Positions 9,139-33,192 are shown, numbered from the stretch's first letter. The stretch: 64,000 nt of DNA from Elusimicrobiota bacterium (GCA_023213235.1 CP096137.1:3374437-3438436); one strand, 5' to 3'. Numbers and translations: made by a program. The notes: generated by a model from the sequence alone, not told the origin.

Positions 9139-9962
9139 GGTGTCAGGTTTTGCAATTCTCCAATTCCGTGGAACTTTTGGCCACTCTCAGTCGTATGTAT
9201 AGTAATGGGAAGAAAACCGAGGATTCATTTCGACGGAGCCATGTTTCATTGTTGGGCGCGCGGAGTCGATCGGAGAACGATTTACGTCGATGACTCCGAC
9301 TATTCGGGATTTATGGACTGCTTGGAGGGAGTGCTGCGCGCGGCAGATGCGAAACTAATCGCTTATTGCCTGATGCCGAATCACTTCCATCTGCTCATTC
9401 AGGTAGGACGAATTCCGCTTTCGTCGATCATGCAGAGAACGTTAACGACCTATGCCGCCCGATTCAATAAGCGTCATGGGAGGGTCGGCCATTTATTCCA
9501 AGAACGGTTTCGAGAGAAGTTGTGCTGCGACAACGTCTACTTGGCCAACATCATCCCGTATATTCACAGGAACCCGGTCCGCGCATCACTAGTCGCTTCA
9601 CCCGATCAATGGAAATGGTCCAGTCAGAGCCGATTTCCTGTTGATTCGATGGACTTGACCGGATTCGATCCCTGGGAAGGATCAGTGGACAGCCCTCTTG
9701 ATCTAACTCGTCGTGAGGAAATGGAACGGGCATCACTCCAAAGCGTCGTCGAAGCCGTCTCAATGGAGACTTCCGTCGACCACGCGCTTATCCGATCGGG
9801 CTGTAAAATCGCTGAGGCAGTTTCAGCGCGGAGAATTGCGGCCGTCAGGATGTTCGAGGCGGGATACTCGGCTTCCGACATCGCCCGGTTTCTACGAATT
9901 GCGATCAGCTCAGCCTGTCGGTTTAGGCCGGGAAGAATTGCAAAATTGCAAAGCCTGACACC
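9139..9962 (+). mobile_element. RAYT element 1 bounded by inverted repeats
   Basis: GGTGTCAGGTTTTGCAATT (9139-9157) and its inverse AATTGCAAAGCCTGACACC (9944-9962), 18/19 match; lower GC than flanks. Confidence 0.75.
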
Positions 9963-10011
9963 AGGGACTACTCCAGGGCCTTCTTCAGGCGGGCCTTCGC
10001 CAATGGGCTGA
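9205..10011 (+). CDS. REP-associated tyrosine transposase (Y1/HUH) with C-terminal helix-turn-helix
   Basis: FHCWARGVDR, YCLMPNHFHLL (HUH), HLFQERF, YIHRNPVRA, W.WSS. The real stop may be TGA 9956-9958 inside the right repeat if a base is missing. Confidence 0.85.
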   Translation: MGRKPRIHFDGAMFHCWARGVDRRTIYVDDSDYSGFMDCLEGVLRAADAKLIAYCLMPNHFHLLIQVGRIPLSSIMQRTLTTYAARFNKRHGRVGHLFQERFREKLCCDNVYLANIIPYIHRNPVRASLVASPDQWKWSSQSRFPVDSMDLTGFDPWEGSVDSPLDLTRREEMERASLQSVVEAVSMETSVDHALIRSGCKIAEAVSARRIAAVRMFEAGYSASDIARFLRIAISSACRFRPGRIAKLQSLTPGTTPGPSSGGPSPMG

Positions 10012-10189
10012 GGCCGGGGCAGCCGGCGTCGGACTTGCAGGCGCGGCGCAGGATCGTCAGGTGTTCGAGCAAACGCCGGCAGACGTCGCACACCGACAGG
10101 TGGAGCTTGGCGTGAAGTCCGATCGGGCGGCCGTCCATGGCGTCGGACAGCAGGCGGGCGACTTCCTTGCAGGACGGGAGCATGCTCAC
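9968..10189 (-). CDS. zf-HC2 (ZAS) anti-sigma factor
   Basis: SCKEVARLLSD...HLSVCDVC (HxxxCxxC); GTGA overlap with the sigma stop. Confidence 0.8.
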   Translation of the reverse strand: MSMLPSCKEVARLLSDAMDGRPIGLHAKLHLSVCDVCRRLLEHLTILRRACKSDAGCPGLSPLAKARLKKALE

Positions 10190-10734
10190 GCGGCCCCCGG
10201 TGCGAAGTGGTTCTTTTCGAGGCACCGGCGCAGGCGCAGGCGCGCGCGGTACAGGAGCACGGCCAGATGGGCGGGCGGAACGCCGAGAGCCTCGGCGGCG
10301 GCGGGGGCGTCGAGGCCTTCCATCTCGCGCAGGACGAAGGCGCGCGCGACGGGGGCGGTGAGGCCCTCGAGACAGCGGCGCAGGGCGGCCCCGAGCTCGG
10401 CGGACTCGGCCTTGGCCTGCGGCCATTCGCGCGGGGCCTCGGCGGGGGTCCAGTGGCGGCCGTCGAAGAGGTCATCCTCGCGGGAGCCGTCGTCGTCGCC
10501 GAGCGGCGTCTCTTTCGACTGCTTACGGTAATGCTCGAAGATTTTGTTTCGGAGGATGCCGGTCATCCAGGTCAGCTCGGAGGATTCGGCCTTGAACTTG
10601 GCTCTCGATTCGAGCGCGGCCAGGAACGTCTCTTGGACGAGGTCCTCGGCGGAAGCCTGGTCGCGCACGCGGGAGAAGGCGTAGCGGAACAGGCGGTCGC
10701 CGTAGGCATCGACCCATGATTTCGGATCGGTCAA
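10186..10734 (-). CDS. ECF RNA polymerase sigma factor
   Basis: AEDLVQETFLAA, TWMTGILRNK, FVLREMEG, LYRARLRLR. Confidence 0.9.
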   Translation of the reverse strand: MTDPKSWVDAYGDRLFRYAFSRVRDQASAEDLVQETFLAALESRAKFKAESSELTWMTGILRNKIFEHYRKQSKETPLGDDDGSREDDLFDGRHWTPAEAPREWPQAKAESAELGAALRRCLEGLTAPVARAFVLREMEGLDAPAAAEALGVPPAHLAVLLYRARLRLRRCLEKNHFAPGAA

Positions 10735-11485
10735 CGGACCTCCGTGATCAGGCCGCTCTCCGCGAGAAACGCGAAAAACGACTTCGTACGAGCCTCGGTC
10801 ATGCCTTTTGCCTTGGACAACGCCTGGGACAGACGAGCCCCCTTCATGAGCGAAGAAAGAACCGATGCTTCAGGAGCGGCGAGCGTGACGGAGCTTACGG
10901 GGCCGCCGCCGCGCTTATATAGGAGGACCCATTGCTCGTGAGCCCAATCGGACTTCTTGAGGGGAGAATCGTCGCGACGGTCTCTTTTCCAGATTCGGTG
11001 TACGGCATGGCCGAATTTCAAGAATCGGATCGCCGGGCCAAAAATCAATACGGAATTATTTTTGACGGATTGAGAGAGCAGTTTGGCCGACAACGGCGCG
11101 TGGGGCGCCGCGTGAAAGAGTTCTTTGTACTCCCATTCCAACACAGCCAAATTTTCTATGAACGGCGCTTCGCGCCCAAACTTCTTTTCAGGAATCCGGG
11201 GAACGAGCCGCCGTAGTCCGACAGATTATGGGATTTGGAAGGAACGGACCGCGCGTACTCCTCGCACGCCCTCAGAAAATCCTCGTCACCCAGAACGCGC
11301 CAGCAAGTCTCAAACGTCTCGCCCAACGCTTCCGACAGTCTCGCGGGATAGCCTTTCCGATACACGTCGACGGCGGCGAGGGCCGACAACCGGCCTCCTC
11401 CGGACACCGACGCGGCGAACGACGGGTCGACGGCGCCGTAGGCCGAGGAGACGAAGCGGCGTTGAAGCGCTTTAAGCGACGGCAA
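10731..11485 (-). CDS. DUF2063 / BufC-type MNIO partner protein (frameshift in the A-run near 11188)
   Basis: VYRKGYPARLSEAL..F, PS.SHNL.DYG..F. Adding one A joins the two ORFs as LKKKFGREAPFIENLAVLEWE. Confidence 0.8.
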
Positions 11486-12290
11486 GATTCGCCTCCGCCA
11501 ACCGTATCGCCTTCTTCACCTCGTTTTCGAGCACGTTCCACGCGGGGACGTCCTCGTCCCATTCGATGAGCACGGGAACCTCCGGCACGCGGCGGATCAC
11601 GCGGCGATACAACTCCCAGACGGGATCGGTCGGAGCCTTGGAGTGCGTGTCGAACAGGAAGTCGCCCATGTCGGAGTAGCCGCCGAGATGGAGCTGGGCG
11701 ATGAACTCCGAGGGAATCGCGTCGAGGTAATCCTCGGCCTTGAAGCCGTGGTTGGTCGCGCTGACGAAGACGTTGTTGACGTCGAGGAGGATCTTGCAGC
11801 CCGAGCGCCGCGCGATCTCGACGAGGAACTCCTCCTCCTTCATCTCGGAGTCGCGGTAGGTGAGGTAGCTCGACACATTCTCCAAACCGATCGGCCTTGC
11901 TAAATGCTCTTGGACGCGATTGACATTCCTGACGACGGTCCTGACCGCCTCTTCCGTATAAGGCAGCGGCAGGAGATCGTGAATATTCTTCGCGTGCGCG
12001 CCCGTGAAGCAGAGGTGATCGGTCACGAGGAACGGCTCGACCTCGGAGATCAGCCGCTTGAGGGATTCCAGATACCCGGGCCGCGGGCCCTCGACGCCGC
12101 CGATCGACAGCGACACGCCGTGCAGCGCGACGGGGTAGTCGCGACGGATCGCTTTGAGGACTTCTCGCGGGCGGCCGTGCGAGTCCATGTAGTTCTCGCT
12201 GAGGGCCTCGAACCAGGAGACGGCCGTGCGCGGGCGGCGAAGAAGGACGGGGAAGTGGGCGGAGCGCAGCCCGGCCCCCGCCTTGATCAG
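11472..12290 (-). CDS. DUF692 multinuclear non-heme iron oxidase (MNIO, BufB/MbnB family)
   Basis: GLR..H, EALSENY, LHGVSLSIG, DHLC, HDLLPLPY, LENVSSY, LLDVNNVFV, QLHLGG, DTH, LIEWD. The start is probably CTG at 12290, overlapping the precursor TGA. Confidence 0.9.
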   Translation of the reverse strand: MIKAGAGLRSAHFPVLLRRPRTAVSWFEALSENYMDSHGRPREVLKAIRRDYPVALHGVSLSIGGVEGPRPGYLESLKRLISEVEPFLVTDHLCFTGAHAKNIHDLLPLPYTEEAVRTVVRNVNRVQEHLARPIGLENVSSYLTYRDSEMKEEEFLVEIARRSGCKILLDVNNVFVSATNHGFKAEDYLDAIPSEFIAQLHLGGYSDMGDFLFDTHSKAPTDPVWELYRRVIRRVPEVPVLIEWDEDVPAWNVLENEVKKAIRLAEANLAVA

Positions 12291-12606
12291 CCCGCTTTGA
12301 ACTTTCCGTTTCGCGAGCGGCAATCGGTCTCCGTCAGGCTCAGCCAGCCCTTGCCCTTGCAGGCGTTCTGTCCGGCGCAGGCGTGGCCCTCGGGCCCGCC
12401 GCAGGCGCCCTGGCCTTTGCAGGCGTTGACGCCCCAGCACTCGCCCTTCTTGCCGTCGGCCGGCGCGGAAGCGCCCGTCGCGGGCCCCGAGGCCGAAGAC
12501 TGGGCGGCGCCGCCGTGGGCGCCGGAGGGGCCGGGGGCGTCGTCTTGCAACCGGCCATCGCGAAAGCGGCCAGGGCCGCCGCCGTCAGCTTCGTCTGTCG
12601 CTTCAT
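12287..12606 (-). CDS. Bufferin-type RiPP precursor, six-Cys CxGxNxCKG double-repeat class, with lipoprotein signal (frameshift in the Pro/Ala linker)
   Basis: AGGAGA SD; MKRQTKLTAAALAAFAMAG-C lipobox; core ECWGVNACKGQGACGGPEGHACAGQNACKGKGWLSLTETDC in the adjacent frame; directly upstream of DUF692. Confidence 0.8.
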
Positions 12607-12649
12607 GATCGTTCTCCTGAGGATGAGTGCCGGAAAGGCGTCCGGAATG

Positions 12650-14107
12650 TCAGGGCTTCTTGAGGTCGGCGGAGCGGTCGGCGGGCACGCCGTAGCGCGC
12701 CATGACGGCGGGCATGATCTTGGCCGCGGTGTCGGCGTCCATCACGATGCGCGTGCCCTTGTTCTCGCCGTACCCCGAGTAATGCTCGAGCTCGAGCACG
12801 TGCCGGCCGCCGAGCGGCTTCTCGAACGCGGCGACGAGGTCCTTGAGGCTGCCGATCAGGACGCCGTTGACGCGCGTGACCGGCGCCATCGAGAGGCCGT
12901 GGTAGCCGCGGTTGAAGTCGTGGGCGAGCACGTGGGAGAGGACGACGACCTCGGTCCGCTCCGGCGTGGGCATGCCGTCGGCCGAGAGCGAACGCACGCG
13001 ATAGCTCGCGCCGCGCGCCGCGATGAGCTCGTCGGACAGCGGCATGAACACGAGGCCGCCCGCGATGAAGTAGGCGGGGCGCGCGTCGTAGCGCGGGCCG
13101 GGAACGAGGTCGGCCGAGCCCTTCAGCGGCAGCTTGACCGTCGTCTTCTTGTCCTCGCGCACGACGACGGCGTCGAGCGTCTCGCCGATCTGTCGGCGGC
13201 TGATGAGGTCGGAGAAGTCGATGCGCTCGTCGTCGCGGAACGGGATCGTGCCGTCCTGGCCGATCTTGATGCCGTCGAGCTCCATGAGCACGTCGCCTTC
13301 CTTGAGCGCTCCCCACGCCGAGCCGCCGAAGCCGGTCTTCGTGATCAGGACGCCGCTGTTGTCCGGCGGCAGGGACAAGGTCTTGCGCAGGCTCTCGTTT
13401 TCAGTGCCTTGCCACCAGGCGCCGAGCTCGGGGATGCCGTCGTACTTGCCGTCGTCGACGTCTTTCAGGAAGCGCCGGATGATCGGCATCGGCACGACGT
13501 AGCCGATGTTCTGGGCGCCCGCGCTGTGCTGGAAGGCGATGCCGATGAGCTTGCCCTCCTGGAACACGGGGCCGCCGGAGTTGCCCGGGTTGATCGCCGC
13601 GTCCGTCTGGATCGCGAGCAGGCCGCGCGAGGAGTGCGAGTACACGGTCACGCCGACGCGCGAGACGATGCCCTCGGTTACCGACAGGTCGGTGCCGCCG
13701 ATCGGGTAGCCGTATACGGCCACCTTGTCGCGCTGCGACGGCACGCCGCCGAAGGGCGCCGGCTTCGTCCCGTCGAAGAACGAGGGGTCGTCGACCGTGA
13801 CGACGGCGGTCTCGCCGTCGTGCCCGGCGAACGCCACGCGCGCGGGATACTTGCGGATGTCCCCCGACTTGCGCACCGAGAGATAGGCCGCGTTGGCGAC
13901 GACGTGTCCGTTGGTCAGGATGCGGTTGCCCTCGATGATGACGCCGGAGCCCGTCCCGCTGCCCTGGCGGCCCGGCTGCCAGGGCTGGGCGTAGTCGGGG
14001 TTGCTGGCCGTGAAGTGGATCTGGACGGTGGCCCGGCGCAACTCGCGGTCGGCGTTGGCGGCCGCGGCGGGCGTCGCCAGGACGAGGAGCAGGAGAAGGT
14101 GGCGCAT
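12650..14107 (-). CDS. HtrA/Deg-type serine protease with PDZ domains (Deg2-like)
   Basis: Signal peptide from ATG 14107; GSGVII, LTNGHVV, GYPIGG, IQTDAAINPGNSGGP. Confidence 0.88.
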   Translation of the reverse strand: MRHLLLLLVLATPAAAANADRELRRATVQIHFTASNPDYAQPWQPGRQGSGTGSGVIIEGNRILTNGHVVANAAYLSVRKSGDIRKYPARVAFAGHDGETAVVTVDDPSFFDGTKPAPFGGVPSQRDKVAVYGYPIGGTDLSVTEGIVSRVGVTVYSHSSRGLLAIQTDAAINPGNSGGPVFQEGKLIGIAFQHSAGAQNIGYVVPMPIIRRFLKDVDDGKYDGIPELGAWWQGTENESLRKTLSLPPDNSGVLITKTGFGGSAWGALKEGDVLMELDGIKIGQDGTIPFRDDERIDFSDLISRRQIGETLDAVVVREDKKTTVKLPLKGSADLVPGPRYDARPAYFIAGGLVFMPLSDELIAARGASYRVRSLSADGMPTPERTEVVVLSHVLAHDFNRGYHGLSMAPVTRVNGVLIGSLKDLVAAFEKPLGGRHVLELEHYSGYGENKGTRIVMDADTAAKIMPAVMARYGVPADRSADLKKP

Positions 14108-14204
14108 GAGGGGAATCGTAGCATTCCCCGCCCCGGGAGCCGTGTCCCGTTCGTAACAAATCTGATCTTGCGGAGACGTGAACGGCCTGCTATATCCTCG
14201 TCGC

Positions 14205-14594
14205 ATGGCCACCCTTTCCAGCGCGCTCTTCGCCGCCGTCAACTTCGTCCATGCCATGATCTTCGGCGGCCCCATCGACGGCACCGCGTGGGACGTCAAG
14301 GTCAAGCAGGACGGCTTCTTTCACTGGGGCAGCAAGAAGGACACCCTCGTCTTCCACAAGGGCAAGCTCGTGGTCGCCGGCGCCGTCGGCCAGGGCTACT
14401 CCCCCGCCCTCTACGAATCGCGCGACGAGAGCCAGGGCACCGTCTTCGAGGCCGTGCTCGACGACCCCTCCCGCGAGCCGATCGAGTGGTCCGGCCGCGT
14501 CGAGGGCGACAAGATCTCCGGCGTCGTCATCGTGCGCGCGCGCGACGGCCGCGCGGTGAAGTACGCCTTCTCGGGCGCCAAGAAGGCCGGCTAA
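14205..14594 (+). CDS. Hypothetical beta-rich protein
   Basis: TATCCT 6 nt before ATG 14205; host-like codon usage. Confidence 0.6.
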   Translation: MATLSSALFAAVNFVHAMIFGGPIDGTAWDVKVKQDGFFHWGSKKDTLVFHKGKLVVAGAVGQGYSPALYESRDESQGTVFEAVLDDPSREPIEWSGRVEGDKISGVVIVRARDGRAVKYAFSGAKKAG

Positions 14595-14612
14595 AGCTAC
14601 AATAGCCGGGCC

Positions 14613-15169
14613 ATGGCCAAGACCCGCATCGTCGCGCTGAACAAGCCCTACGGCTACCTCACCCAGTTCACCGACAAGGACGGCCGCCCCACCCTCTCGA
14701 AGTTCAGCCTGCCCCACGGCGTCTATCCCGCGGGCCGCCTCGACTTCGACAGCGAGGGCCTGCTCCTCCTCACCGACGACGGCGGCCTCGCCCATCGCCT
14801 GACCGATCCTTCGCACGGCCATCCGCGCGTCTATTGGGCGCAGGTCGACCGCGTGCCCGACGAGGCGACGATGAAGACGCTGCGCTCGGGCGTCATGCTC
14901 AGCGACGGCAAGTCGAAGTCCTGCAAGGCGCGCGTGCTGACCGAAGAGCCGGACCTTCCGCCGCGCAATCCCCCATCCGCCACCGCCTCAACGTGCCGAC
15001 GTCCTGGATCGAGTTGACGATGACCGAAGGCCGCAACCGCCAGGTCCGCCGCATGTGCGCCGCGATCGGCCACCCCTGCGTCCGCCTCGTGCGCGCCGCG
15101 ATCGGCAACATCACCCTGGCCGGCCTCGAGCCGGGAAAGTGGCGCTGGGTCGACCGCCGCGAACTGTAA
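14613..15169 (+). CDS. rluE: rRNA pseudouridine synthase, RluE/RsuA family (frameshift near 14980)
   Basis: [36 protein letters not shown]. Confidence 0.85.
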
Positions 15170-16008
15170 AGGGGTCAGACCTTACACGTTTCACTTTTTC
15201 GCTCGCGCGTAGCGGCTCACCGACCCCAACGGGCATTGCAGCCATTCCGCGATTCGGACGAGCCGATGTCCTGCCTTCAAGGCTTCCTGGGTAAAAGCCC
15301 GCTTCGTGGCGATTATTCGACGATCGAACGTCGCGGACTTCAGCGCTTCCTCCGAAACGATCTCACGCGCCGCGACGATCGCGCCGATATCCGCCAGCGA
15401 CGGCAGGTCCGGAGCCAATTCGCGCTTCAAATCCAATTCGACGTCCTCGGCGTTCTCCCACGGATCAAAACCGCTAAGGTCCATCCCATCATCCTCTAAC
15501 CTCGCGCCTCGCAGGCTCGACCACGGCCAATGATGGGCTTCGACGGTCAGGCCTGCGCGAACAGGATTCAAATGGATATAGCGAATCACCTTTCGCAGGT
15601 ACAGCTCGTCGAGACAAAGTTTCGCCTTGAACCGCGCCTGAAACAGATGCCCCATTCGTTTGTGGCGGCGATTGTATACCTGCGCGTGAACGCCCTCGAG
15701 CCGCTGCATGACCACGGACAAAGGGACGTGCGCGACGCGAATCGCCAGATGGAAATGGTTGCCCATGAGGCAATACGCCATGATCTCGACTCCGGAATCT
15801 CGCTTGGCTCGTTCGAGCTCCGAGAGAAATAGGAAGCGGTCGTCGTCGTCCTCGAAAATGGAGCGGCCATCCACGCCGCGAGCCATCGCGTGGTATACGG
15901 CGCCGTAGAAATGAACGCGGGGAGGGCGGGGCATGCACTATTCATACGATTGAGCACCCCGAAAAGTTCCCTCAGAAAAAGTGAAACGTGTGAGGTCTGA
16001 CCCCTTTA
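15167..16008 (-). mobile_element. RAYT element 2 bounded by 33-bp inverted repeats
   Basis: TAAAGGGGTCAGACCTTACACGTTTCACTTTTT (15167-15199) and its inverse at 15976-16008, 32/33 match. The outer TAA triplets are the stops of convergent rluE and yihY. Confidence 0.85.
15191..15934 (-). CDS. REP-associated tyrosine transposase (Y1/HUH) with C-terminal HTH
   Basis: YHAMARGVDG, YCLMGNHFHL, HLFQARF, YIHLNPVRA, WPWSS; the stop TGA lies inside the left repeat. Confidence 0.88.
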   Translation of the reverse strand: MPRPPRVHFYGAVYHAMARGVDGRSIFEDDDDRFLFLSELERAKRDSGVEIMAYCLMGNHFHLAIRVAHVPLSVVMQRLEGVHAQVYNRRHKRMGHLFQARFKAKLCLDELYLRKVIRYIHLNPVRAGLTVEAHHWPWSSLRGARLEDDGMDLSGFDPWENAEDVELDLKRELAPDLPSLADIGAIVAAREIVSEEALKSATFDRRIIATKRAFTQEALKAGHRLVRIAEWLQCPLGSVSRYARAKK

Positions 16009-17139
16009 TCGGTGGAGCTTGACCGGAACCCCGGGAATCCGGCGCTTCGCCTCGAGCATCGCGGCCATTGCGGCGCCGGCGCCGGTGGATAAGCCGCCCA
16101 GCACGCCGCGCAGGACGGGGCGGCGCCACTTCTCCGAGCGTCCCTTCTTGAGCAGGGCGGCGCCGCCCAGCATCCCGGCCGCGGCGACGACGTACCAGAG
16201 CGCGTGGGGGTCGGGCTCCCCGTCGCGGACCTGCTTCTGGGCCTGCGCCGTGGCGTTGAACGGGGTGACCAGGGCGACCGCGCCCTCCTTGAGCGGCAGG
16301 CGCCGGCCGTCGCGCTCGGCGTAGGCGCGCGTGAGTTCCGCGCCGAACAGGACGATCTGCGAGGAGTAGTACACCCACAGCAGCAGGACGATCACCGAGC
16401 CCGCGGCTCCGTAGGTCGAGGCGACGCCGCTCTTTCCTAAATAGAGCCCGATGCCCATCTTGCCCGCGGTGAACAGCAGGCTCGTCCAGAAGCCGCCGAG
16501 CAGGGCCGTCCGCCACGGCAGGCGCACGTCGGGCAGGACCTTGAAGATCAGCGCGAACAAGGCCGAGATGACGCCGAGCGAGACGACGACGTTGACGGCC
16601 TGCCACACCGCCTCCCCGCCGGGCAGGCCGGCGGCGAACTTCCCGGCGGCGGCCAGGCCCGCGCTGACGACGAGGGAGACCATGAGGAGGAAGGCGATCA
16701 CGCCGATCATCCCGAAGGACAGCAGGCGGCGCTTGATCGTCGCTCCCCAGCCCGCGTCTGGGCGCGGAGCCGTCTTCCAGATCACGTTGAGCGACTCCTG
16801 CATCTGGCCGAACACGCCGGAGGCGCCGACGAGCATGGTGATCACGCCGAGGACTGTCGCCATGAGCCCCGTCTTCGGCCGGGACGCGGCGCCCTCGACC
16901 ATGGACTGCACGGCCGTCGCCCCGTTCTCGCCGACGAGGCCGCGGATCGTTTCGAACACGTGCGTCCCGCCGCCGTCGCCGAAGACGATGCCGGCGATGC
17001 CGATCGCGATGACGAGCATCGGCGCGATCGAAAACGCCGTGTAGTAAGCGAGCGCGGCGCCCATCATGGGGACCTTGTCCTCGGAGATGCCGCGCGCGGC
17101 GGTTTTCACGAGCGCCATGGAGGAGGAGAGATATTTCAT
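16006..17139 (-). CDS. yihY: YihY/virulence factor BrkB family membrane protein
   Basis: AALAYYTAFSIAP, LLLWVYYSSQIVLFGAE; TACACT 6 nt before ATG 17139. Confidence 0.88.
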   Translation of the reverse strand: MKYLSSSMALVKTAARGISEDKVPMMGAALAYYTAFSIAPMLVIAIGIAGIVFGDGGGTHVFETIRGLVGENGATAVQSMVEGAASRPKTGLMATVLGVITMLVGASGVFGQMQESLNVIWKTAPRPDAGWGATIKRRLLSFGMIGVIAFLLMVSLVVSAGLAAAGKFAAGLPGGEAVWQAVNVVVSLGVISALFALIFKVLPDVRLPWRTALLGGFWTSLLFTAGKMGIGLYLGKSGVASTYGAAGSVIVLLLWVYYSSQIVLFGAELTRAYAERDGRRLPLKEGAVALVTPFNATAQAQKQVRDGEPDPHALWYVVAAAGMLGGAALLKKGRSEKWRRPVLRGVLGGLSTGAGAAMAAMLEAKRRIPGVPVKLHR

Positions 17140-17246
17140 GGGGCCAGTGTAGCGCTCCCGCCGCGGCGGGGCCCATGCCGAGGCGGTCATTTATCGTTGA
17201 CGGCCGCGAGATGGCCCGCGAAGCGCGTCCGGGCTAACATGATCCC

Positions 17247-18956
17247 ATGCTCCGCGCCGCGTCCGTCCTGCTGCTGCTCGCCTCCGCCGCCGCGGCGAAG
17301 GACGTGTGCCCGCGCCTGCGGCTCGAGGGGCCGGACCCGAAGCTGTCCGAACCCGAGAAGCGTCTTGTCTGCGGGGATCCCGGCTCCGACGGCTGGAAGA
17401 AGGTGTCCCTGCCGCAGGCCCGCGAGTTCATGACCGCCTTCCTTCAAAAGCGCGGCCGGCACTTCCCGTCCTTCACCACCGACGGCGACGCGCTCGTCGT
17501 CGACGCGGGCACGGCGACGTACGTGACCTCGCTCGTCGGCCGCGGCCTCGAGGGCGTCTACGATCTCGGCAAGCGCCGCAAGGTCGTCGGCCGCCCGCTG
17601 ACGCCGGACCTTCTCGACCAGGTCAAGAAAGCGGTCGCTTTCGAACTCGGCGCGCGCGGCTACCCGTGCCCGAAAACGGCCGTCACGGCCGACGCGCGCA
17701 CGGGCGAGGTGCGCGTCGACGTCTCGCCCGGCGAGCGCCGCACCGTCGGCGAGATCCCCCGCCGAGGGCATGACGATCGACCCCGCCGTGCTGACCCGCT
17801 ACGAGGCCTTCGAGCCCGGGGATATCTTGGACCAGCGGATGCTGTCTTTAACGTCCGACCGCGTGAAGGAGGACGCGCTGTTCGCCTCCGCCTACTACGA
17901 CGTGGCCTGCTCGACGGCGGGCTCGACGATCACGCAGCGCGTCGTCGAGGCGCAGCCCCACCTTCTGACGATCGGAGTCGGCGCCGACACCGAAGGGCTC
18001 GTGCGCGCCCGCGCGCGCCTGCGCCGCTCGGCGATCGGCAAGCGCGCCTCCTACGCCGAGGCCGCGCTCGCCGCCAGCCGCCGCGAGCAGTCCCTCGACG
18101 CGCTGATGCGCCTGTACCTCGCCCCGGGCGACCGCCTGCACCTCGTGCCCGCGTTCTACCTGCGCCGCGAGGACGAACTGCGCTACGAGGCCGCGCACGG
18201 CGAGGCGGCGCTCTCCCCGCGTGGGCCAGCGACGCCGGCGGCCTGCGCCTCGAGGCGCGGGGCGGCCCCGCGGTCGACTTCTTCGACACCTTGCGCGGCC
18301 AGGGGCCGCGTTCTTCATCGTGGTTTCAGTTTGTCACCCACGCGCAGGTTTCGAGCCACCTGCACGAGTTCTACCGCCGCGACCCGCGCCGCGGCTGGTC
18401 GGCCGCCCTCGACACGACGCACCGCGTCGAGGGCGCGCACTCGCGCGCGAGCGCGCAGGGCCTGCGCCTCTCCGGCCAGGCGCTCTGGAACCTCGGGAAC
18501 TTCGAGCCGCCGCTGGCCGTCCTCGCCACGCGCGGCAGCTACGGCACGATCGCCGGCATCTCGCGGGCCGACGCGCTCGCGCACCTGCCTCCCACCGAGC
18601 GCTTCTTCCTCGGCGGCGACGCCGACCTGCGCGGCGTCCAGCGCAAAGGCCTGCCCTTCGACGACGGCGGCTTCCTGACCGCGGCCTATCAAGGAGTGGA
18701 GCTGCGCGCGGGCGACGTCCTGCCGTACGGCCTCCAGCCCTTCGTCTTCGCCGACGCCGCGATGGGCGGCCGCGACGGCTGGGCGCTCGAGAAGGACGTC
18801 TACTACGCGCCCGGCCTCGGCATGCGCTGGGCCTCGCCGTTCGGCTCCATCCGCGCCACCGCCGCCCGCGGCCTCGTGTGGCGCAACGGCTCCGCGTCCG
18901 GCGAGCCGTTGAAGCCGCGCTGGCAGTTCTTCTTCAGCTTCGGACGGGAGTTCTGA
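17247..18956 (+). CDS. Omp85/TamA-like outer-membrane protein (several frameshifts, 17760-18250)
   Basis: Signal peptide, POTRA-like region, RFFLGGDADLRG, GLGMRWASPFGSIR, terminal FSFGREF. Confidence 0.75.
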   Translation: MLRAASVLLLLASAAAAKDVCPRLRLEGPDPKLSEPEKRLVCGDPGSDGWKKVSLPQAREFMTAFLQKRGRHFPSFTTDGDALVVDAGTATYVTSLVGRGLEGVYDLGKRRKVVGRPLTPDLLDQVKKAVAFELGARGYPCPKTAVTADARTGEVRVDVSPGERRTVGEIPRRGHDDRPRRADPLRGLRARGYLGPADAVFNVRPREGGRAVRLRLLRRGLLDGGLDDHAARRRGAAPPSDDRSRRRHRRARARPRAPAPLGDRQARLLRRGRARRQPPRAVPRRADAPVPRPGRPPAPRARVLPAPRGRTALRGRARRGGALPAWASDAGGLRLEARGGPAVDFFDTLRGQGPRSSSWFQFVTHAQVSSHLHEFYRRDPRRGWSAALDTTHRVEGAHSRASAQGLRLSGQALWNLGNFEPPLAVLATRGSYGTIAGISRADALAHLPPTERFFLGGDADLRGVQRKGLPFDDGGFLTAAYQGVELRAGDVLPYGLQPFVFADAAMGGRDGWALEKDVYYAPGLGMRWASPFGSIRATAARGLVWRNGSASGEPLKPRWQFFFSFGREF

Positions 18957-18957
18957 C

Positions 18958-21323: not shown

Positions 21324-21425
21324 CGTTACATGATAGGCACGCGGCGCGCCGCGATGCTATGAACGGGCCGCCACGAATTCATGTCCGGCGTGTGACGACC
21401 GTCCAGGCCGAAAGGGAAGTCGCGG

Positions 21426-22652: not shown

Positions 22653-22748
22653 GTTTTGGAACCCCATTGTATCAAATGGGGACCGTGCTATCATGTAGGC
22701 CCAATGACCCAGGCGGCGAGCCGACGCCCCCGTCATAATAAGGAGGAG

Positions 22749-24038: not shown

Positions 24039-24140
24039 CGAGTCGCCGGGCGCGAGCGCCCGGCGCAGACGCATCGGCGGAAATTCCTCATAGCGTCTAG
24101 CCTGTGCTATCATAGGCCGGATTTCACAGGAGACCCGACC

Positions 24141-24887: not shown

Positions 24888-25337
24888 TCAGCGGCGGCGC
24901 GACAGCCGCCGCATCAGGCAGTCGTTCGACACGACGAGCAGGCCCGCCTCGCGCGCCATGCGCTCGCCCTCGTCGTGATACACGCCGTCCTGGAGCCAGA
25001 CCGCCTTGGCCTTCTTGGCGATCGCCTCCAGGATCGGCGTGAACGCCTCCTCCGGACGGCGGAACACGACGACGCAGTCGACCGTCCCGGGAATGTCGGC
25101 CACCGACGGATAACACGTCCGGCCGAGGATCTCCTTGTGGCCCGGGTTGACCGGGATGACCGTGTAGCCGGCCTCCATCACGTACTCGGAGACGTAGTGC
25201 GAGGGACGCTCGGGCTTCGGAGAGAGGCCGACGACGGCGAAGGTCTTCAGCGCGAGGATCGCGTCGACGGCCGCGGAGGAATTGGGCTCGGGGAGACGGC
25301 AGGCGTCGCCGTCTTCAGGCCGCTTCGGTGCCGACAT
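24888..25337 (-). CDS. CoA-binding domain protein (YccU-like)
   Basis: FAVVGLSPKPERPS, VIPVNP, VWLQDG, NDCLM. Confidence 0.85.
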   Translation of the reverse strand: MSAPKRPEDGDACRLPEPNSSAAVDAILALKTFAVVGLSPKPERPSHYVSEYVMEAGYTVIPVNPGHKEILGRTCYPSVADIPGTVDCVVVFRRPEEAFTPILEAIAKKAKAVWLQDGVYHDEGERMAREAGLLVVSNDCLMRRLSRRR

Positions 25338-25641
25338 GGACCTCGCCCTCGTCGATCTCGACGTGGGCGACGTACGACCGGGCGCACACGCCGCAGTCCT
25401 GGTCGATGGTCTGGCCGTCCATGTCCGCGATGACGTGAAGCTCGGTCCCCTCGCCGCAGTGCGGGCATTCGATCGTGACCCACTGGTCGAGCCGTTCCGT
25501 GGTGGCCTCGATGATCTGCTCTTTGAGGACCGTCTCCATCACCTTCTCGGCGGTCTTGTGCTCGGGCTCGTGATGGTCGACGGCCGCGGCTTTCTTCGCG
25601 GCGGGCTTCTTCGTCTTAGAGGGGGCCTTGGTCTTCGGCAT
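25315..25641 (-). CDS. CPXCG-motif cysteine-rich (zinc ribbon) protein
   Basis: CPHCGE...QDCGVC. Confidence 0.75.
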   Translation of the reverse strand: MPKTKAPSKTKKPAAKKAAAVDHHEPEHKTAEKVMETVLKEQIIEATTERLDQWVTIECPHCGEGTELHVIADMDGQTIDQDCGVCARSYVAHVEIDEGEVHVGTEAA

Positions 25642-25686
25642 GTTCTCAGTGTAGAGGGCGAAGCTTTCCCCGTCAAGGGGTCAGTC

Positions 25687-25744
25687 GGTGTCAGGCCTTG
25701 CACTCTTGCAAAGTTGGTTTTGCAAGAGTGCAAGGCCTGACACC
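25687..25744. repeat. Stand-alone REP hairpin related to the ends of RAYT element 1
   Basis: Perfect 26-bp inverted repeat GGTGTCAGGCCTTGCACTCTTGCAAA with a 6-nt loop. Confidence 0.85.
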
Positions 25745-25748
25745 AAAC

Positions 25749-26762
25749 CTACTTGACGGGGGCGACTTCGATGACGACGCGGCGGTTGGCTTTGCGGCCC
25801 TCGGCGCTGTCGTTGGGCTTGGCGGGGCGGAATTCGCCGAAGCCGGCGGCCGAGAGGCGGGCGGGGTCGAGGCCGGCGTGCTCGTGCAGCCAGCGCGCGA
25901 CCGCGGTCGCGCGCGCGGCGGTCAGCTCCCAGTGTCCGGCGTAGCCGCCGAGCAGGCCTTTCTTGAAGGCGGAGTTGTCGGAGTGGGCTTCGACGCGCCA
26001 GTGCTTGCCGGGGATCGCCTTGAGCGCCGCGCCGACGCGCGAGAGCAGCGCTTCGCCTCTTTCCGTGAGCTTGGCCTCGCCCTCGTCGAAGAGAGACGAG
26101 TCGGAGAGCGTGAGCAGGAAGGATTCCCCCGCCTGATCGAGGCGGGCGGCGCCGTCCTGCATTTCCTTTAGGACGGAGTCGGCGGCGGCGCCCATCTCCT
26201 CGCGCGTCCTGAGGACGGCGGCGGACTTGGCCTCGGCGGCGGCTTTGGCGGCGTCGCCGCTCTGGGCGACGGCGCCCTCGGCCTTCGTGAGCTTGGCCAG
26301 GATCGCGTCGCGCTCGGCGGAAAGCTTCGCCAGGTCGCGCGCGGTCTTCTCGCGCGCGGACTGGTAGACGGTCTTCAGGCGCTCGAGGGCGAGCTTCTCC
26401 TTGAGCGTGTCGGAGAGCCGCTTCGAGAGCGCGTCCTTCTCGGCGACGACCGCGTTGAGGCGACCGCCGAGCTCGTCCTTGCTGGCGCCGATCGCGTCGG
26501 AGAGGGACTTGTTCGAGCTGGAAAGCGCGGAGGCGCGGTTCTCGGCGGCGGCGATCTTGCCCTCGGCCTCGGCGAGCTTGGCCTCGAGCTCGGCCTTCTG
26601 CGCCTTGAGCGTCTCGGCCTCGCCGGCGCGCTCCTGGAGCTGGCTATAAAGGGAACCGGCCTTGGTCTGAAGGTCCTCGATCTCCTTCTTCTGCTTTTCG
26701 AGCTGGGCTCCGGCGCAGGCGGAGAGGGAGAGGACGGCGAGGAGGGGCAGGAATCGGTTCAT
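25749..26762 (-). CDS. OmpA/MotB-family lipoprotein with long coiled coil
   Basis: Lipobox LSA-C; coiled coil; LF..G.A.L, HSDN, WELTAARA.AV, GFGEFRP, NRRV.I. Confidence 0.85.
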   Translation of the reverse strand: MNRFLPLLAVLSLSACAGAQLEKQKKEIEDLQTKAGSLYSQLQERAGEAETLKAQKAELEAKLAEAEGKIAAAENRASALSSSNKSLSDAIGASKDELGGRLNAVVAEKDALSKRLSDTLKEKLALERLKTVYQSAREKTARDLAKLSAERDAILAKLTKAEGAVAQSGDAAKAAAEAKSAAVLRTREEMGAAADSVLKEMQDGAARLDQAGESFLLTLSDSSLFDEGEAKLTERGEALLSRVGAALKAIPGKHWRVEAHSDNSAFKKGLLGGYAGHWELTAARATAVARWLHEHAGLDPARLSAAGFGEFRPAKPNDSAEGRKANRRVVIEVAPVK

Positions 26763-26809
26763 GGCGAAATGATAAAATATACCGCGACGCTTTTATAAGG
26801 AGTCCCCCC

Positions 26810-29508
<2,699 letters not shown>

Positions 29509-29546
29509 CCCTTGCGGAATGAAGGTCCCGGGCCTACACTAAGGGT

Positions 29547-29765
29547 ATGACTTACTCTTTCTCGGCGGTCGTGAATAGAGAGGGCCGGATGTTCGTTGCC
29601 CTCTGCCCGGAGTTCGACATCGCCAGCCAGGGAAGAACCGCAGCGACCGCGACCAAGAATCTGAAGGACGCGGTGCGGTTGTATCTCGAGACGGCATCCC
29701 CGGCCGAGCTCGAAGCCGCCAAGGCAGCCAAGACCGTCGTCAAAGAGCTCAGCGTCGCGGTCTGA
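29547..29765 (+). CDS. hicB: HicB-family antitoxin
   Basis: FVALCPEFDIASQG.T...A..NLKDAV; TTGCGG-17-TACACT-6-ATG. Confidence 0.8.
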   Translation: MTYSFSAVVNREGRMFVALCPEFDIASQGRTAATATKNLKDAVRLYLETASPAELEAAKAAKTVVKELSVAV

Positions 29766-29992
29766 TGGGCGGTCTGCCGGTCGTTTCCGGCCGGGAGGCG
29801 GTTCGCGCACTCGCGAAGGCCGGGTTCACCGAAGTCCGGCGAAAGGGCAGCCACATCATCCTTCAAAAGATATTGCCGGGCACGACGAACACCCTGATCG
29901 TGCCTGATCACAAGGAACTCGCCAACGGCACGTTGCGCGCGATCATCCGGAAATCGGGGCTGAGCGTGGATGAGTTTTCCGCCTTCCTGTAG
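29765..29992 (+). CDS. hicA: HicA-family mRNase toxin
   Basis: AGF..VRRKGSHIIL, IVPDHKEL..GTL.AII; TGATG overlap with hicB. Confidence 0.88.
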   Translation: MGGLPVVSGREAVRALAKAGFTEVRRKGSHIILQKILPGTTNTLIVPDHKELANGTLRAIIRKSGLSVDEFSAFL

Positions 29993-30032
29993 CTACTTGT
30001 AATCAGGGCTCTATCGGGCTACACTCATAACG

Positions 30033-30367
30033 ATGACCAGAAAGTTCGCCGCGATCCTCGCCGTCCTCGCCCTGGCCACCTGCGCCGGGCGCGTGTCGGC
30101 GTGGGCGTCGGCTCCCGGCGACGAGCATGCCTGTTGCCGCGGCGAGCCCTCCGCTCCCGCCGAGGCGGCCGTCATCGAGTGCTGCGCCGTCCCGGCCGCC
30201 GTCGCCGCCGTGCGGGTCCCGGCCCCGGACGTTGTCCTCGTCGGCATGCCCGCCGCCCCGCCCGTCGTGCCCGTCTTCGCGCAGTCGTCCGTCGAGTCTG
30301 AGGCCCCGCCGGGTCCCGGACCTTGCGCGCCGCCGTTCCCGCTCGCGCTCCGCCTCTGTCGGCCTGA
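30033..30367 (+). CDS. DUF2946/CruR-like exported leader protein with probable C-terminal RAPP arrest motif (one base missing between 30302 and 30344)
   Basis: Signal peptide, EHACC and IECC motifs, Pro-rich spacer. The adjacent frame reads ...LRAAVPARAPPLSA* (RAPP at 30344-30355, TGA 30365-30367). Confidence 0.6.
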
Positions 30368-30419
30368 CGTCTCAAGAGCATCCTCAGGCCGTTCCCAAAA
30401 TTAAACAGAGAGGTCTATT

Positions 30420-30551
30420 ATGAAGAAAGTGATCCTGTCGCTCGCCGTGGTCGCCGCCGCCGCCGTCGCTGCCTACGCGGCGGACTGCTGCGGGCTGAGC
30501 CTGCCGTGCTGCAAGGCGCAGGCGTCCTGCTGCGACGCGGCGAAGAAGTAA
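30420..30551 (+). CDS. Unannotated 43-aa secreted cysteine-rich peptide
   Basis: SD AGAGAGG; MKKVILSLAVVAAAAVAAYA-ADCCGLSLPCCKAQASCCDAAKK*; host-like codons; followed by a terminator. Confidence 0.8.
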   Translation: MKKVILSLAVVAAAAVAAYAADCCGLSLPCCKAQASCCDAAKK

Positions 30552-30568
30552 GCGCTCCGATCCGAACG

Positions 30569-30606
30569 GACGCCCCTCGGGCCTCGGCCCGGGGGCGTCT
30601 TATTTC
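30569..30606 (+). terminator. Intrinsic terminator after the Cys-rich peptide
   Basis: GC stem GACGCCCCTCGGGCC / GGCCCGGGGGCGTC followed by TTATTTC. Confidence 0.65.
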
Positions 30607-31280
30607 TTGAGCTGGGCGGGCCAGGTCTTCTTGACGGCCTTGAGGATCGAGTCCGCGACGGAGCGCGCGGATTCCTCGAACGAGTAGACGCTCGCGACGT
30701 CGGAGCCGGTCCACAGCACCTCGCCCGTCTGCACGTAGACGAGGCGGGCGCTGACGCCGAGGCGGCCGTACGACGTCACCGTGCGCGGCTCGCGGCGGAC
30801 GAGACGCTTCGTGCGGTAGCCCTGGATCTCCGTGGTCTCGGTCTGGCCGGTGGTGCCGTCGGCGTTCTGGACAGTCTTCGTGCGGCGCACGTAAATCGGG
30901 TCCTGGAACGTGTCGACGACCTCGGTATCGACGAGCGACTCGCGCGGCTCGCGGAAGTCGGTGATGCGCCCGAAGAGCAGCGCGTCGACGCCGAGCAGCT
31001 TGCCGGCGCGCTTGGCGTCCTTGGGATCGGAGGCCGTGAGCCCTTTCTCGCGGAGGAGCTTGTCGACCTGCGCGCGCTCGACGAGGCTGTAGCCGGCCGC
31101 CAGGAGCTCCTGCTCGAAGGCGCCGGCCAGGAGCTCGCCGGAGCCGCCGAAGCCGCCGTAGTCGGAGAAGCCGACCACCGCGACGCGCTTGACCTTCGCG
31201 AAGTCGAAGTCGGCCTTCACGGCGACGGTCGCCGTCGCGCAGGCGCCGAGCAGCGCGATCAGGGGCAGGAGCTTCCTCAT
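30600..31280 (-). CDS. CsgG/LpoB-like lipoprotein
   Basis: Lipobox LGA-C from ATG 31280; RVAVVGF, YSLVERAQVDKLLRE, GKLLGVDALLFG, ARLVYVQTGEVLW. Confidence 0.75.
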   Translation of the reverse strand: MRKLLPLIALLGACATATVAVKADFDFAKVKRVAVVGFSDYGGFGGSGELLAGAFEQELLAAGYSLVERAQVDKLLREKGLTASDPKDAKRAGKLLGVDALLFGRITDFREPRESLVDTEVVDTFQDPIYVRRTKTVQNADGTTGQTETTEIQGYRTKRLVRREPRTVTSYGRLGVSARLVYVQTGEVLWTGSDVASVYSFEESARSVADSILKAVKKTWPAQLKK

Positions 31281-31305
31281 GCCGCCGATCCTAGCTTTTA
31301 TCGGG

Positions 31306-32139
31306 CTAGAGGGCCCATTGCGCGACGTTGACGCCGGCCAGCGCGTCGCGCCCGGAGGCGCGGCGGTGCTCGTCGAGGCCGAGCCAGAAGGTCTCGATGG
31401 CCTCGAGCGCCTTCTTGCCGCCCTTGAGGAAGCGCTTCGCGTCGAAGCCGGGCTGCTCGAACGTCTCCTCGAGCTCGCGCCAGACGTTGACGCCGTGGCC
31501 GGCCTCGATCTCGGCGTGGAACTTGAAGAAGCCGAGCGGGATCGCCTCGAGATCTTCCGACGCCCGGCGTTCATTGACGGCCTCGAGGCCTCGGATCAGC
31601 TGGCGCCAGAAGTTCCCCGCCTCGAGCGCGGGCCCCGCGCCCAGGCCGGAGGCCGCCCAGCACTCGATCGCGAAGGAGGCGCCCGCGCCGATCATCGGGT
31701 CATGCGAGCCGTAGGTCTTGTCGAGGCCGTTGAGGAAGGCCTTCGTCGCGTCGGAGGCGGAGGCCCAGCGGCCGAGCTTCATCGGCTCGATGCCGATGAC
31801 GGCTCCCGCGTCGCGCAGCCAGTTGAGGTGCGCGTTGCCCGTCGCGAACGTGCGCCCCTCGACCGAGCCCGTGCGCGGGTCGATGCCGACGCCGCACTCG
31901 TTCATCAGGATGTTGCGCGCGCAGCGCTCGCCCTCGAGCGTGCCGGCGTTGACCATGCGCTTCACCTGGAGCACCAGGAAGTGGTTCGAGAACACCGAGA
32001 ACTGCGTGATCAGCTCGGCGACCTGCTCCTCGTCGGCCTCGCCGCGGGCGAACCAGGCGGTGAAGGGATTCGCGGTGATCACGGGGTGCGTGAACAGCTC
32101 GCGGCGCACGACGGCTTTGAAGGCTTCGAGATCTTTCAT
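31306..32139 (-). CDS. Heme-oxygenase-like dimetal oxidase (PqqC/TenA/CADD superfamily)
   Basis: HPVITANPF N-terminus, ILMNE, AHLNW, FAIE and FHAEIEAGH (H-x3-E-x2-H) ligand pattern. Confidence 0.65.
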   Translation of the reverse strand: MKDLEAFKAVVRRELFTHPVITANPFTAWFARGEADEEQVAELITQFSVFSNHFLVLQVKRMVNAGTLEGERCARNILMNECGVGIDPRTGSVEGRTFATGNAHLNWLRDAGAVIGIEPMKLGRWASASDATKAFLNGLDKTYGSHDPMIGAGASFAIECWAASGLGAGPALEAGNFWRQLIRGLEAVNERRASEDLEAIPLGFFKFHAEIEAGHGVNVWRELEETFEQPGFDAKRFLKGGKKALEAIETFWLGLDEHRRASGRDALAGVNVAQWAL

Positions 32140-32219
32140 GCCCACAGCATACCCCGCGGGCTGTGTTTCTGTGAAGTAGCTAATATTGACATCACTGTTA
32201 ACCTGTGGTTTACTACGGC

Positions 32220-33112
32220 ATGGACCTCTACCAGCTGCGCTACTTCCTCGAGACGGCCCGGGAACTCAACTTCACGCGGGCCGCCGCGAACCTCGGCGTC
32301 TCGACGCCGGCCGTCAGCAAGAGCGTCGCCCTGCTCGAGCGCTCCGTCGGGCAGCCCCTGCTCACGCGCACCCGCCGGCTCGTCCAGCTGACCCAGGCCG
32401 GCGAGCGGCTCAAGGTCCACGCCGAGCGCGTCTTCGACGAGGTCGAGGCGGCGCGCCTGGACCTGCGCGGCGAGGCGGGCTCGCCCGCGATGCTCAAGAT
32501 CGGCAGCCGCGAGATGATCACGAACTACCTGCTGGGGCCGTCGCTGTTGGAGCTGAGGAAGCTGCACCCGTCGACGCGCACCGGCATCTACGAACTGGGC
32601 CCCAAGGAGATGGCGGCCGCGCTGAAGAAGAACCAGATCGATTTCGCGTTCTACTACAGCGCCGAGATCCCCGATCCGTCCCTCGAGATCCGCCGTCTCG
32701 GCCATCTCGATTCTCACGTCTACGCCGCGCCGTCCTTGTGGAAGGGCGCCAAGGCGCCTAAGACGTTCGACGAGGTACGCAAGCTCCCGTTCATCGCCCC
32801 GCGCTATTTCGGCGCCGATCCCGCGGAGGCAAGCCTCGACGGCTTCCCCGATCAGGAGTCCCCCGGACGATCCAGTACGAGGGCGAGTTCCTCGAGACCC
32901 ACCGCCGCTTCGCCCTCGACGGCATCGCCGCCGCGGTCCTGCCCGACTTCACGGTCAAGCGCGAGTGGAAGGCCGGCCTGCTCGCGCGCCTCCCGGGGCC
33001 GGAGCTCGGCCGCGAGATCTACTTCCTGAAGCGCCGCGGGCGGACGCTCCCAAATGCCGTCGACGCCTTCGTCGACGTCGTCGCCCGCTCCATCAAGCGC
33101 GTCGCCTACTGA
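32220..33112 (+). CDS. LysR-family transcriptional regulator (frameshift near 32865)
   Basis: MDLYQLRYF...NFTRAA..L.VSTPAVSK...LE; divergent from the dimetal oxidase. Confidence 0.88.
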
Positions 33113-33119
33113 GAAAGAA

Positions 33120-33192
33120 GGGTCAGACCTTACACGTTTCACTTTTCCACTCGACCGAATCGAGTAAAAGTGAAACGTGTAAGGTCTGACCC
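33120..33192. repeat. Stand-alone REP hairpin matching the ends of RAYT element 2
   Basis: Perfect 27-bp inverted repeat GGGTCAGACCTTACACGTTTCACTTTT with an inner ACTCGA/TCGAGT stem, between convergent genes. Confidence 0.9.

Follow-up and report, generated by a model that had tools for sequence, protein, structure and literature searches.

A stretch of 64,000 nt from an Elusimicrobiota bacterium (GCA_023213235.1, CP096137.1:3374437-3438436; hereafter the window) carries two transposase genes of the Y1/HUH (histidine-hydrophobic-histidine) type, RAYT1 and RAYT2. We conclude that both very probably belong to TIRtrons, mobile units of about 0.8 kb in which a TIRYT-type Y1/HUH gene lies between long terminal inverted repeats, and that the free-standing hairpins of this genome are their non-autonomous miniatures. 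Each miniature (mini-dimer) consists of two ends joined heads-out around a short loop without a gene, in the manner of miniature inverted-repeat transposable elements (MITEs) or of REPINs, the doublets of repetitive extragenic palindromes (REPs). The host represents an uncultured genus and its genome is a single contig of 3.80 Mb with 68.6% GC; unlabelled coordinates are positions within the window, and those given as genome (C1) coordinates refer to the whole contig. Congeners, which carry G-numbers, are 70-89% identical to this genome in flanking DNA. The original prediction had described the two genes as REP-associated tyrosine transposases (RAYTs), each with its own end repeats and a cognate hairpin, and all four features lie where it placed them: two units of about 830 bp between inverted ends and two perfect hairpins (Table 1).

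The class itself is already described. Di Nocera, De Gregorio & Rocco (2013, BMC Genomics 14:522; PMC3733652) gave RAYT-like genes between long terminal inverted repeats the name TIRYT and their units the name TIRtrons; they described the end motif GGGGWSAS and end families whose members stand singly, as dimers or in groups. Of 26 TIRYTs, 20 are assigned by Quentin, Siguier, Chandler & Fichant (2018, BMC Genomics 19:475; PMC6006769) to Y1 subclass 2.1, with a C-terminal domain resembling Bac_DnaA_C, HTH_23 or HTH_28; they leave the role of this helix-turn-helix (HTH) open, GGGGWSAS being unlike a DnaA box. The present genome is an unusually rich example in a new host, and the new details are the head-plus-subrepeat build of the ends, the DnaA-domain-IV fold of the extra domain and a domain-wise co-divergence of transposases and ends.

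The RAYT2 unit is bounded by inverted repeats, as had been claimed, with arms of 34 nt that are 97% complementary. These arms differ from the consensus of end family E at no more than one position (0-1 mismatch), and the free hairpin assigned to the same family differs from it at one. The end motif GGGGTCAG fits GGGGWSAS exactly, the stop codon of the gene falls within the end repeat, and the GC content of the unit is 58.6% against 69.5% in its flanks. As single-stranded DNA the hairpin has a predicted fold of -40 kcal/mol (z -11.5); it fills the interval that separates two convergent genes, one of which takes part of its stop codon from the last bases of the hairpin. Judged by their sequences, RAYT2 and this hairpin are truly cognate, a clean transposase-plus-miniature pair, and RAYT2 is likely to be the driver of family E, this hairpin included. 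The same spacer (33082-33230) holds 160 nt of other filler with its own palindrome, GGGGTTTTGATCA...TGATCAAAACCC, in G001 (L090) and 172 nt of unrelated filler in G012 (L091); it has been colonised repeatedly.

The pairing of RAYT1 with the perfect hairpin at 25687, in contrast, did not hold. The hairpin belongs to family C, whereas the arms of the RAYT1 unit (R1) lie nearest to family B, at 3-5 mismatches, and are 6-9 of 28 positions away from family C and from the hairpin itself; for the left end alone the distances are three mismatches to the B consensus and nine to that of C. A genome-wide count of the repeats, which had been proposed as a check, found family E (20 arm sites) and family C (19) to be multicopy and dispersed, but the end census of the genome located RAYT1's own arm sequence nowhere besides the unit. 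Among 38 congeners searched, the closest relative of RAYT1 is 58% identical, and its ends, TGGTGTCAGGTTTTGCGTTCTTGCGTT, are neither B nor C. The two ends of R1 are complementary at 24 of 28 positions (86%), the reading frame passes through the right end to a stop codon 49 nt outside the element, and the GC content is the lowest of the intact units; on these grounds we judge R1 to be the most degenerate of them. Its right end retains a tandem repeat (p=0.0025), and its end motif, GGTGTCAG, fits GGGGWSAS at 7/8 positions. R1 is a lone, somewhat decayed unit whose claimed hairpin partner is a member of another family.

Table 1. Features of the window, end families of the genome, and end pairs that bracket host-like genes.
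Feature	Position	Strand	Description
TIRtron R1 (RAYT1 unit)	9139..9962	+	824 bp; most degenerate, lowest GC (52%) among the six intact units of the genome
R1 left end	9139..9166	+	GGTGTCAGGTTTTGCAATTCTCCAATTC; head GGTGTCAGG, then subrepeats TTTGCAAT + TCTCCAAT
RAYT1 gene, TIRYT paralog	9205-10011	+	268 aa; HUH motif NHFHL, Tyr motif IPYIHRNP, C-terminal HTH
R1 right end	9935..9962	-	GGTGTCAGGCTTTGCAATTTTGCAATTC; head GGTGTCAGG, then TTTGCAAT x2
TIRtron E (RAYT2 unit)	15171..16004	-	834 bp; inverted repeat extends to 15167-15200 and 15975-16008; arms contain TTACACGTTTCAC
RAYT2 gene, TIRYT paralog	15191-15934	-	247 aa; Y1/HUH domain aa 1-140, DnaA-domain-IV-like HTH aa ~175-245
Family C mini-dimer	25687..25744	.	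58 bp, heads out; 26-nt perfect arms, 6-nt loop; exact C consensus
Family E mini-dimer	33119..33193	.	75 bp; 27-nt perfect arms, 19-nt loop
Family F mini-dimer	41282..41358	.	77 bp; TAGTGCCAGGCACGTACATTCGGTAAATTC arms, fold z -9.9; same class as the other two hairpins
Family A			36 sites; arm after head GGTGTCAGGCCT[A/C]ACGATTAACGATTC
Family F			28 sites; arm after head TAGTGCCAGGCACGTACATTCGGTAAATTC
Family E			20 sites, 8 of these dimers; arm after head GGGGTCAGACCTTACACGTTTCACTTTTC
Family C			19 sites; arm after head GGTGTCAGGCCTTGCACTCTTGCAAAG
Family B			15 sites; arm after head GGTGTCAGGTTGTGCAATTGT[C/G]C[G/A]ATTC
Family J			14 sites
Family D			10 sites
Family G			10 sites
Families H, H2, E2, I, K			smaller
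Family F pair	C1:3790466-3791621		1156 bp; DUF6782 peptidase-like gene
Family F pair	C1:13814-14386		573 bp; GNAT gene, frameshifted
Family A pair	C1:3264264-3264655		392 bp; HNH gene
Family F pair	C1:3712379-3713013		635 bp; unknown open reading frame

The family C hairpin has a predicted single-strand fold of -34.2 kcal/mol (z -9.4) and lies between the stop codon of one gene (25749-26762, minus strand) and the TTGACG -35-like box of another (25315-25641, minus strand). The promoter-like site to which this box belongs, TTGACG-17-TACACT (25648-25676, minus strand), is conserved in congeners and stands directly beside the hairpin, which is inserted about 10 nt upstream of the -35 box. A native stem around the hairpin (CCCCGTCAA...TTGACGGGG) was considered and rejected, since the conserved -35-like box makes up one half and coding sequence found only in this genome the other. 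Directly outside some arms, head-like remnants abut the head, namely GGGGTCAGTC, GGTGTCCGGTAC and GGTGTCAGGCCT[T/A]CGTTAGAG, each followed by GGTGTCAGG (window 25677-25695; genome 3114431, 159896 and 2196190); they hint at repeated insertion beside existing or pseudo heads. The family F hairpin, outside the range covered by the original prediction, sits between convergent genes, and the stop codons of both neighbours overlap its TAG-bearing termini.

Across the genome we counted 171 end sites in at least 12 families, and 61 heads-out mini-dimers, of which 38 measure 74-80 bp. There are eight full units of 800-853 bp, one for each Y1 locus and each with its own end family, so that the idea of parallel transposase/end families in one genome, advanced from two examples, was an underestimate. 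Also supported is the proposal that each free hairpin joins a left and a right end with no gene between them. All families share the head G(G/T/A)(G/T)G(T/C/A)CAG, and GGGGWSAS-type motifs recur in more than 60 relatives from many phyla. The layout of an end is a conserved head of this type, here GG[G/T]G[T/C]CAG, followed by two, sometimes three, family-specific tandem subrepeats of 8-9 bp; examples from this genome and from relatives in many phyla are TCCCATTA x2, TGTGCAAT x2, CCGGTATTA x3, CTTGACAT x2 and ACAACTTA x2. Among 71 arms from many phyla, 29 have a tandem repeat that is significant against shuffled sequence (p<=0.05; chance expectation about 3.5), and in 23 of these 29 the period is 8 or 9 bp. 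Families A, G and J have an inverted copy of the subrepeat on the outer side as well, so that each arm becomes a small hairpin whose loop holds the head (fold z-scores -5.3, -7.0 and -3.1); the same is seen in many Firmicutes-type relatives. Most arms are not self-complementary.

The two arms of an element also share their variants. We found 20 paired changes and 38 changes in a single arm, with only about 0.4 coincidences expected, and in family A all four combinations of two polymorphisms are present, each matched between both arms, whereas the loops differ in nearly all copies of each family. Because paired changes exceed chance while the loops drift, it is arm complementarity, and not merely arm sequence, that is maintained; this supports a substrate that folds back as a single strand.

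The evidence for mobility comes from the congeners. A comparison of empty and filled sites had been suggested, and the RAYT1 unit and both hairpins are indeed missing at orthologous sites: the unit from the intergenic region in G011, G005, G012 and G001; the family C hairpin from a conserved junction in at least 12 congeners, where the gaps are about 55-85 nt shorter; and the family E hairpin in G014, where the two convergent stop codons are 3 nt apart. The GC content of all eight units is 52-59%, 10-15 points below that of their flanks (65-72%), and the number of Y1 copies varies from 0 to 8 across the genus. Among 73 elements there is no excess of 2-5-bp direct repeats at offsets 0-14, and the absence of a target-site duplication is what is expected for HUH transposition. 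The overall behaviour is like that of an insertion sequence (IS) and unlike that of vertically inherited, single-copy RAYTs.

The mini-dimers are strongly placed at the 3' ends of genes, and this position also speaks for a different account, in which they are immobile relics kept for a host function, as bidirectional terminators, stabilizers of mRNA 3' ends or insulators, and the transposases are decaying passengers. We regard this as unlikely, although it accommodates several observations. As many as 42 of the 61 mini-dimers have the stop codon of a gene supported by its third-position GC content (GC3) no more than 16 nt away, and for 12 this holds on both sides, the mini-dimer taking up the entire interval from one convergent gene to the other; the corresponding values under a rough random null are 1.1 and 0.01. 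The termini of the elements often supply the stop codon themselves, as TAG in TAGTGCC (family F) or as TAAA before GGGG (family E), and T-rich flanks follow the E and F copies. Conserved arms beside loops saturated with changes imply that the copies are old yet constrained, frameshifts interrupt two of the eight transposase genes, and for several families an intact transposase is lacking. Nevertheless, presence is lineage-specific at the three sites tested, and the six intact transposase genes have ends that are perfect or nearly so. A simple terminator scan flagged none of the hairpins, its limits on stem and loop size excluding them by design. A host function would, moreover, be compatible with our explanation that the hairpins are miniatures of TIRtrons.

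The proteins confirm the description of RAYT-like Y1 transposases with an extra C-terminal HTH. Pfam Y1_Tnp matches RAYT1 (E 9e-11) and RAYT2 (E 9e-12), and HTH_23 matches RAYT1 weakly (E 4e-4). Six of the eight Y1 loci are intact (245-268 aa) and two are frameshifted; the intact paralogs are 37-41% identical to RAYT1, and NHFHL (HUH) and YIHxNP (catalytic Tyr) are invariant across the six, in which W-x-W-S-S is also kept. The AlphaFold model of RAYT2 (predicted local distance difference test, pLDDT, 90) has as its best PDB match 4er8, the E. coli TnpAREP-REP complex (template-modelling score, TM, 0.72 on target), followed by the TnpA proteins of IS200, IS608 and ISDra2. Homologs of this TIRYT subfamily number more than 2,300 at E<1e-5, and related ends occur in many phyla. 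The likeness to published TIRYTs extends to long terminal inverted repeats in place of REPs at all eight loci, GGGGWSAS ends, of which some are self-complementary, several TIRYTs in one genome, and end families dispersed as singles and dimers. Features shared with subclass 2.1 are the serine motif (here W-x-W-S-S) behind the HUH/Y core, the lack of REPs nearby and, from domain features and fold, the C-terminal HTH. The differences are the new host and an unusually high load, 3.8 Mb carrying eight units and at least 12 families of ends. A head with two tandem 8-9-bp subrepeats, uniform dimers of about 76 bp and placement at stop codons are not described in the available text of PMC3733652 or PMC6006769, and the family-specific subrepeats beside the head are proposed here as the HTH site.

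The frame of the original prediction, RAYT-REP systems, can be read in the classical sense, in which a domesticated RAYT is present as a single copy, is inherited vertically and maintains REP doublets (Pseudomonas, E. coli). The resemblance is considerable: the catalytic fold is shared with TnpAREP, inverted repeats flank the genes, inverted doublets are dispersed through the genome, their arms are conserved while the spacers drift, as in REPINs, and family-specific systems coexist (Nunvar 2010; Bertels & Rainey 2011, PMC3116915; for TnpAREP/REP, 4er8, PMC3479197). The RAYT equivalog NF047646 (REP_Tyr_transpos) is, moreover, the only NCBIfam match of the two proteins, but at 73.1 and 73.2 bits it stays below the curated cut-off of 80. 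Several RAYT/REP families per genome are known, for example in Pseudomonas and Stenotrophomonas. Here, however, GTAG-tagged palindromic REPs were not found at the genes, the ends start with GG(G/T)GTCAG, and the proteins carry a DnaA-like domain that TnpAREP does not have. The eight divergent paralogs, the low GC content of patchily distributed units, the absence of the RAYT1 unit from four congeners and the distance of its nearest relative in the genus all speak against the single-copy, vertical inheritance that characterizes RAYTs (Bertels 2017, PMC5581495). We therefore consider classical RAYT-REPIN systems improbable, and the units may instead correspond to the more IS-like 'Group 1' of the same study. 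The contrast with GTAG REPs had been noticed in the original prediction, and the architecture of a single inverted pair around the gene stands; its novelty does not, as it is that of a TIRtron (PMC3733652), and the HTH-bearing proteins are of the subclass 2.1 type (PMC6006769).

Equally doubtful is a movement of double-stranded DNA after the manner of classical IS elements, with the HTH bound to the terminal inverted repeats, insertion at TA and only incidental hairpin potential. Such a process would suit true terminal inverted repeats and a duplex-binding DnaA-type domain; the ends of family F read AGTGCC...GGCACT with T before and A after, 9 of 11 F copies are flanked by T...A, and a 1156-bp F-bounded unit lies exactly inside the (C/T)TAG stops of the empty sites in G017, G013, G003 and G040. 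However, the HUH/Y1 domain is the only encoded enzyme, and known members of this class (IS608, ISDra2, TnpAREP) act on single-stranded DNA. No 2-5-bp duplication was seen at the offsets scanned, TA is its own reverse complement, so that T...A can equally extend the inverted repeat, and the paired arm changes favour intra-strand pairing. The lack of a target-site duplication also separates the mini-dimers from classical DDE-driven MITEs, with a palindromic TA at family F ends as a possible qualification. With the IS200/IS605 group (the TnpA proteins of IS608 and ISDra2) the units share HUH/Y1 chemistry, the lack of target duplication and an expected recognition of hairpins. In that group the hairpins are subterminal and all point the same way on one strand, terminal inverted repeats are lacking, TnpA measures about 130-150 aa with Y---Q, and tnpB is often present; none of these hallmarks applies here, where terminal inverted repeats bound genes for proteins of 245-268 aa with YIHxNP.

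The extra domain of these TIRYTs is predicted to have the fold of DnaA domain IV. When the C-terminal 76 residues of RAYT2 were modelled alone (pLDDT 91), the top seven PDB matches were all DnaA domain IV (TM 0.74-0.85), the best of them with TM 0.82-0.85 and root-mean-square deviations (r.m.s.d.) of 1.0-1.3 A, including two complexes with a DnaA box, 3pvp (TM 0.84, r.m.s.d. 1.0 A) and 1j1v (TM 0.82, r.m.s.d. 1.3 A). The C-termini of 30 homologs give weak profile matches to Bac_DnaA_C (16/30), HTH_23 (14/30) and HTH_28 (11/30). A profile of the domain has no significant match among PDB sequences (best E 0.17), so that the link to DnaA comes from the comparison of folds, and sequence identity is only about 17%. 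As a monomer, DnaA domain IV reads the 9 bp of a DnaA box, and these boxes are found as arrays. A fold of this kind would suit arrays of 8-9-bp subrepeats, even though the sequence of the subrepeats varies from family to family and is not that of a DnaA box.

We tested the co-divergence of 30 transposase/end pairs with partial Mantel statistics, and also in a set pruned of near-duplicates and outliers to 26 pairs. Divergence of the head tracks the catalytic domain and not the C-terminal domain (r 0.46-0.51, p 0.0007), while divergence of the subrepeats tracks the C-terminal domain weakly and the catalytic domain not at all (r 0.18, p 0.013, n=30). Mean divergence is 47% for the catalytic and 70% for the C-terminal domain, 28% for the head and 60% for the subrepeats. 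Together with the fold, these statistics suggest that the HTH may confer family-specific recognition of the ends.

In the mechanism that we propose for TIRtrons, the arms would fold back on single-stranded DNA into a stem of about 29 bp, which would restore duplex subrepeats. Each duplex subrepeat could be bound by one DnaA-IV-like HTH of a transposase dimer, giving family specificity, and the stem would set both heads at its foot, where the conserved Y1 domain would cut and rejoin the DNA through a 5'-phosphotyrosine link, by analogy with the chemistry of IS608 and TnpAREP. Full units and mini-dimers would be processed alike. Somewhat further from the data is the possibility, which we advance tentatively, that the ends form a two-part, re-assortable address, with the head for the Y1 domain and the 8-9-bp subrepeat array for the HTH, one domain each, which would let at least eight orthogonal systems coexist, and that the ends may also move or flip bracketed host genes (PilZ, GNAT, HNH and DUF6782 peptidase-like). 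In keeping with the latter, congeners differ in the orientation of the bracketed PilZ gene and in the families of the end pairs around it.

Several points weigh against this account of TIRtrons and their miniatures. The correlation between subrepeats and HTH is weak, falls to p=0.067 in the pruned set and is not taken as proof. The paired arm changes can partly stem from descent from subfamily masters. R241 and Y242 of the recognition helix hardly vary, and its first turn (residues 233-238), the base-contacting part in the DnaA complex 1j1v, is variable; because the second half of the helix (...S-R-Y) is conserved across families, specificity would have to come from this variable first turn. 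The abundant families C, I and K have no intact transposase in the genome, and the same is true of F and G unless their frameshifts are assembly errors. The genes of the F and G units (genome 3243016-3243849 and 359345-360197) are full-length TIRYTs with one frameshift each. Both frameshifts fall at the same pair of conserved residues, Pro-Leu (around aa 70-75), where the codons form a run of C; decay in parallel, a site prone to mutation or a homopolymer error of the assembly could be the cause. At the empty sites the intergenic DNA of the relatives is too diverged to align for an exact reading of element boundaries and target site.

Six intact paralogs with their own end families and dozens of mini-dimers on one 3.8-Mb contig offer a compact natural collection in which to study how an added DnaA-type domain gives an HUH transposase its end specificity. 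TIRYTs are widespread yet barely studied; if the division of labour between head and subrepeats is true, it would explain the role of the C-terminal HTH that Quentin et al. (2018) left open, and orthogonal tools for single-stranded DNA could follow. For annotation, the elements explain why very long 'perfect terminators' stand between convergent genes of these Elusimicrobiota, and some stop codons are supplied by their termini.

End pairs also bracket host genes. At C1:3114443-3114930 a heads-out pair of family C ends that have a private variant in common encloses a PilZ gene (Pfam 2e-8) and no transposase. PilZ occupies the same locus in about 20 congeners, inverted with respect to its flanks in most and collinear with this genome in G017, G036 and G047. 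End pairs of other families bracket it in G049 and G017, two complete mini-dimers of different families flank it in G005, and different end families use the same junction, ...gctccagcTA followed by GG(T/G)GTCAGG. The locus resembles a hot spot for insertion at which families replace one another; end-mediated inversion or re-insertion of a host gene may also play a part.

Further same-family heads-out pairs bracket host-like, non-transposase genes with 64-71% GC (Table 1). An interpretation of the end pairs of 488-1156 bp as deleted TIRtrons was rejected, as they hold no Y1 remnant and have host-like genes inside. The 1156-bp unit is missing in at least nine congeners, and the empty site in G017, G013, G003 and G040 consists of the overlapping (C/T)TAG stops of two convergent genes; in G011 and G044 its gene is present, with no end motif in the stretch examined.

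The genome harbours two more families of perfect palindromes, of 38-48 bp and unrelated to TIRYT ends. The first has DnaA-box-like termini, AGTTATCC[A/C]CA...CTCTCGC|GCGAGAG..., and the second reads ACTACTGATAATCACT...; the palindromes lie at genome C1:152065, 435609, 1052436 and 2895164, and at 524033, 710857, 1838517 and 3587547.

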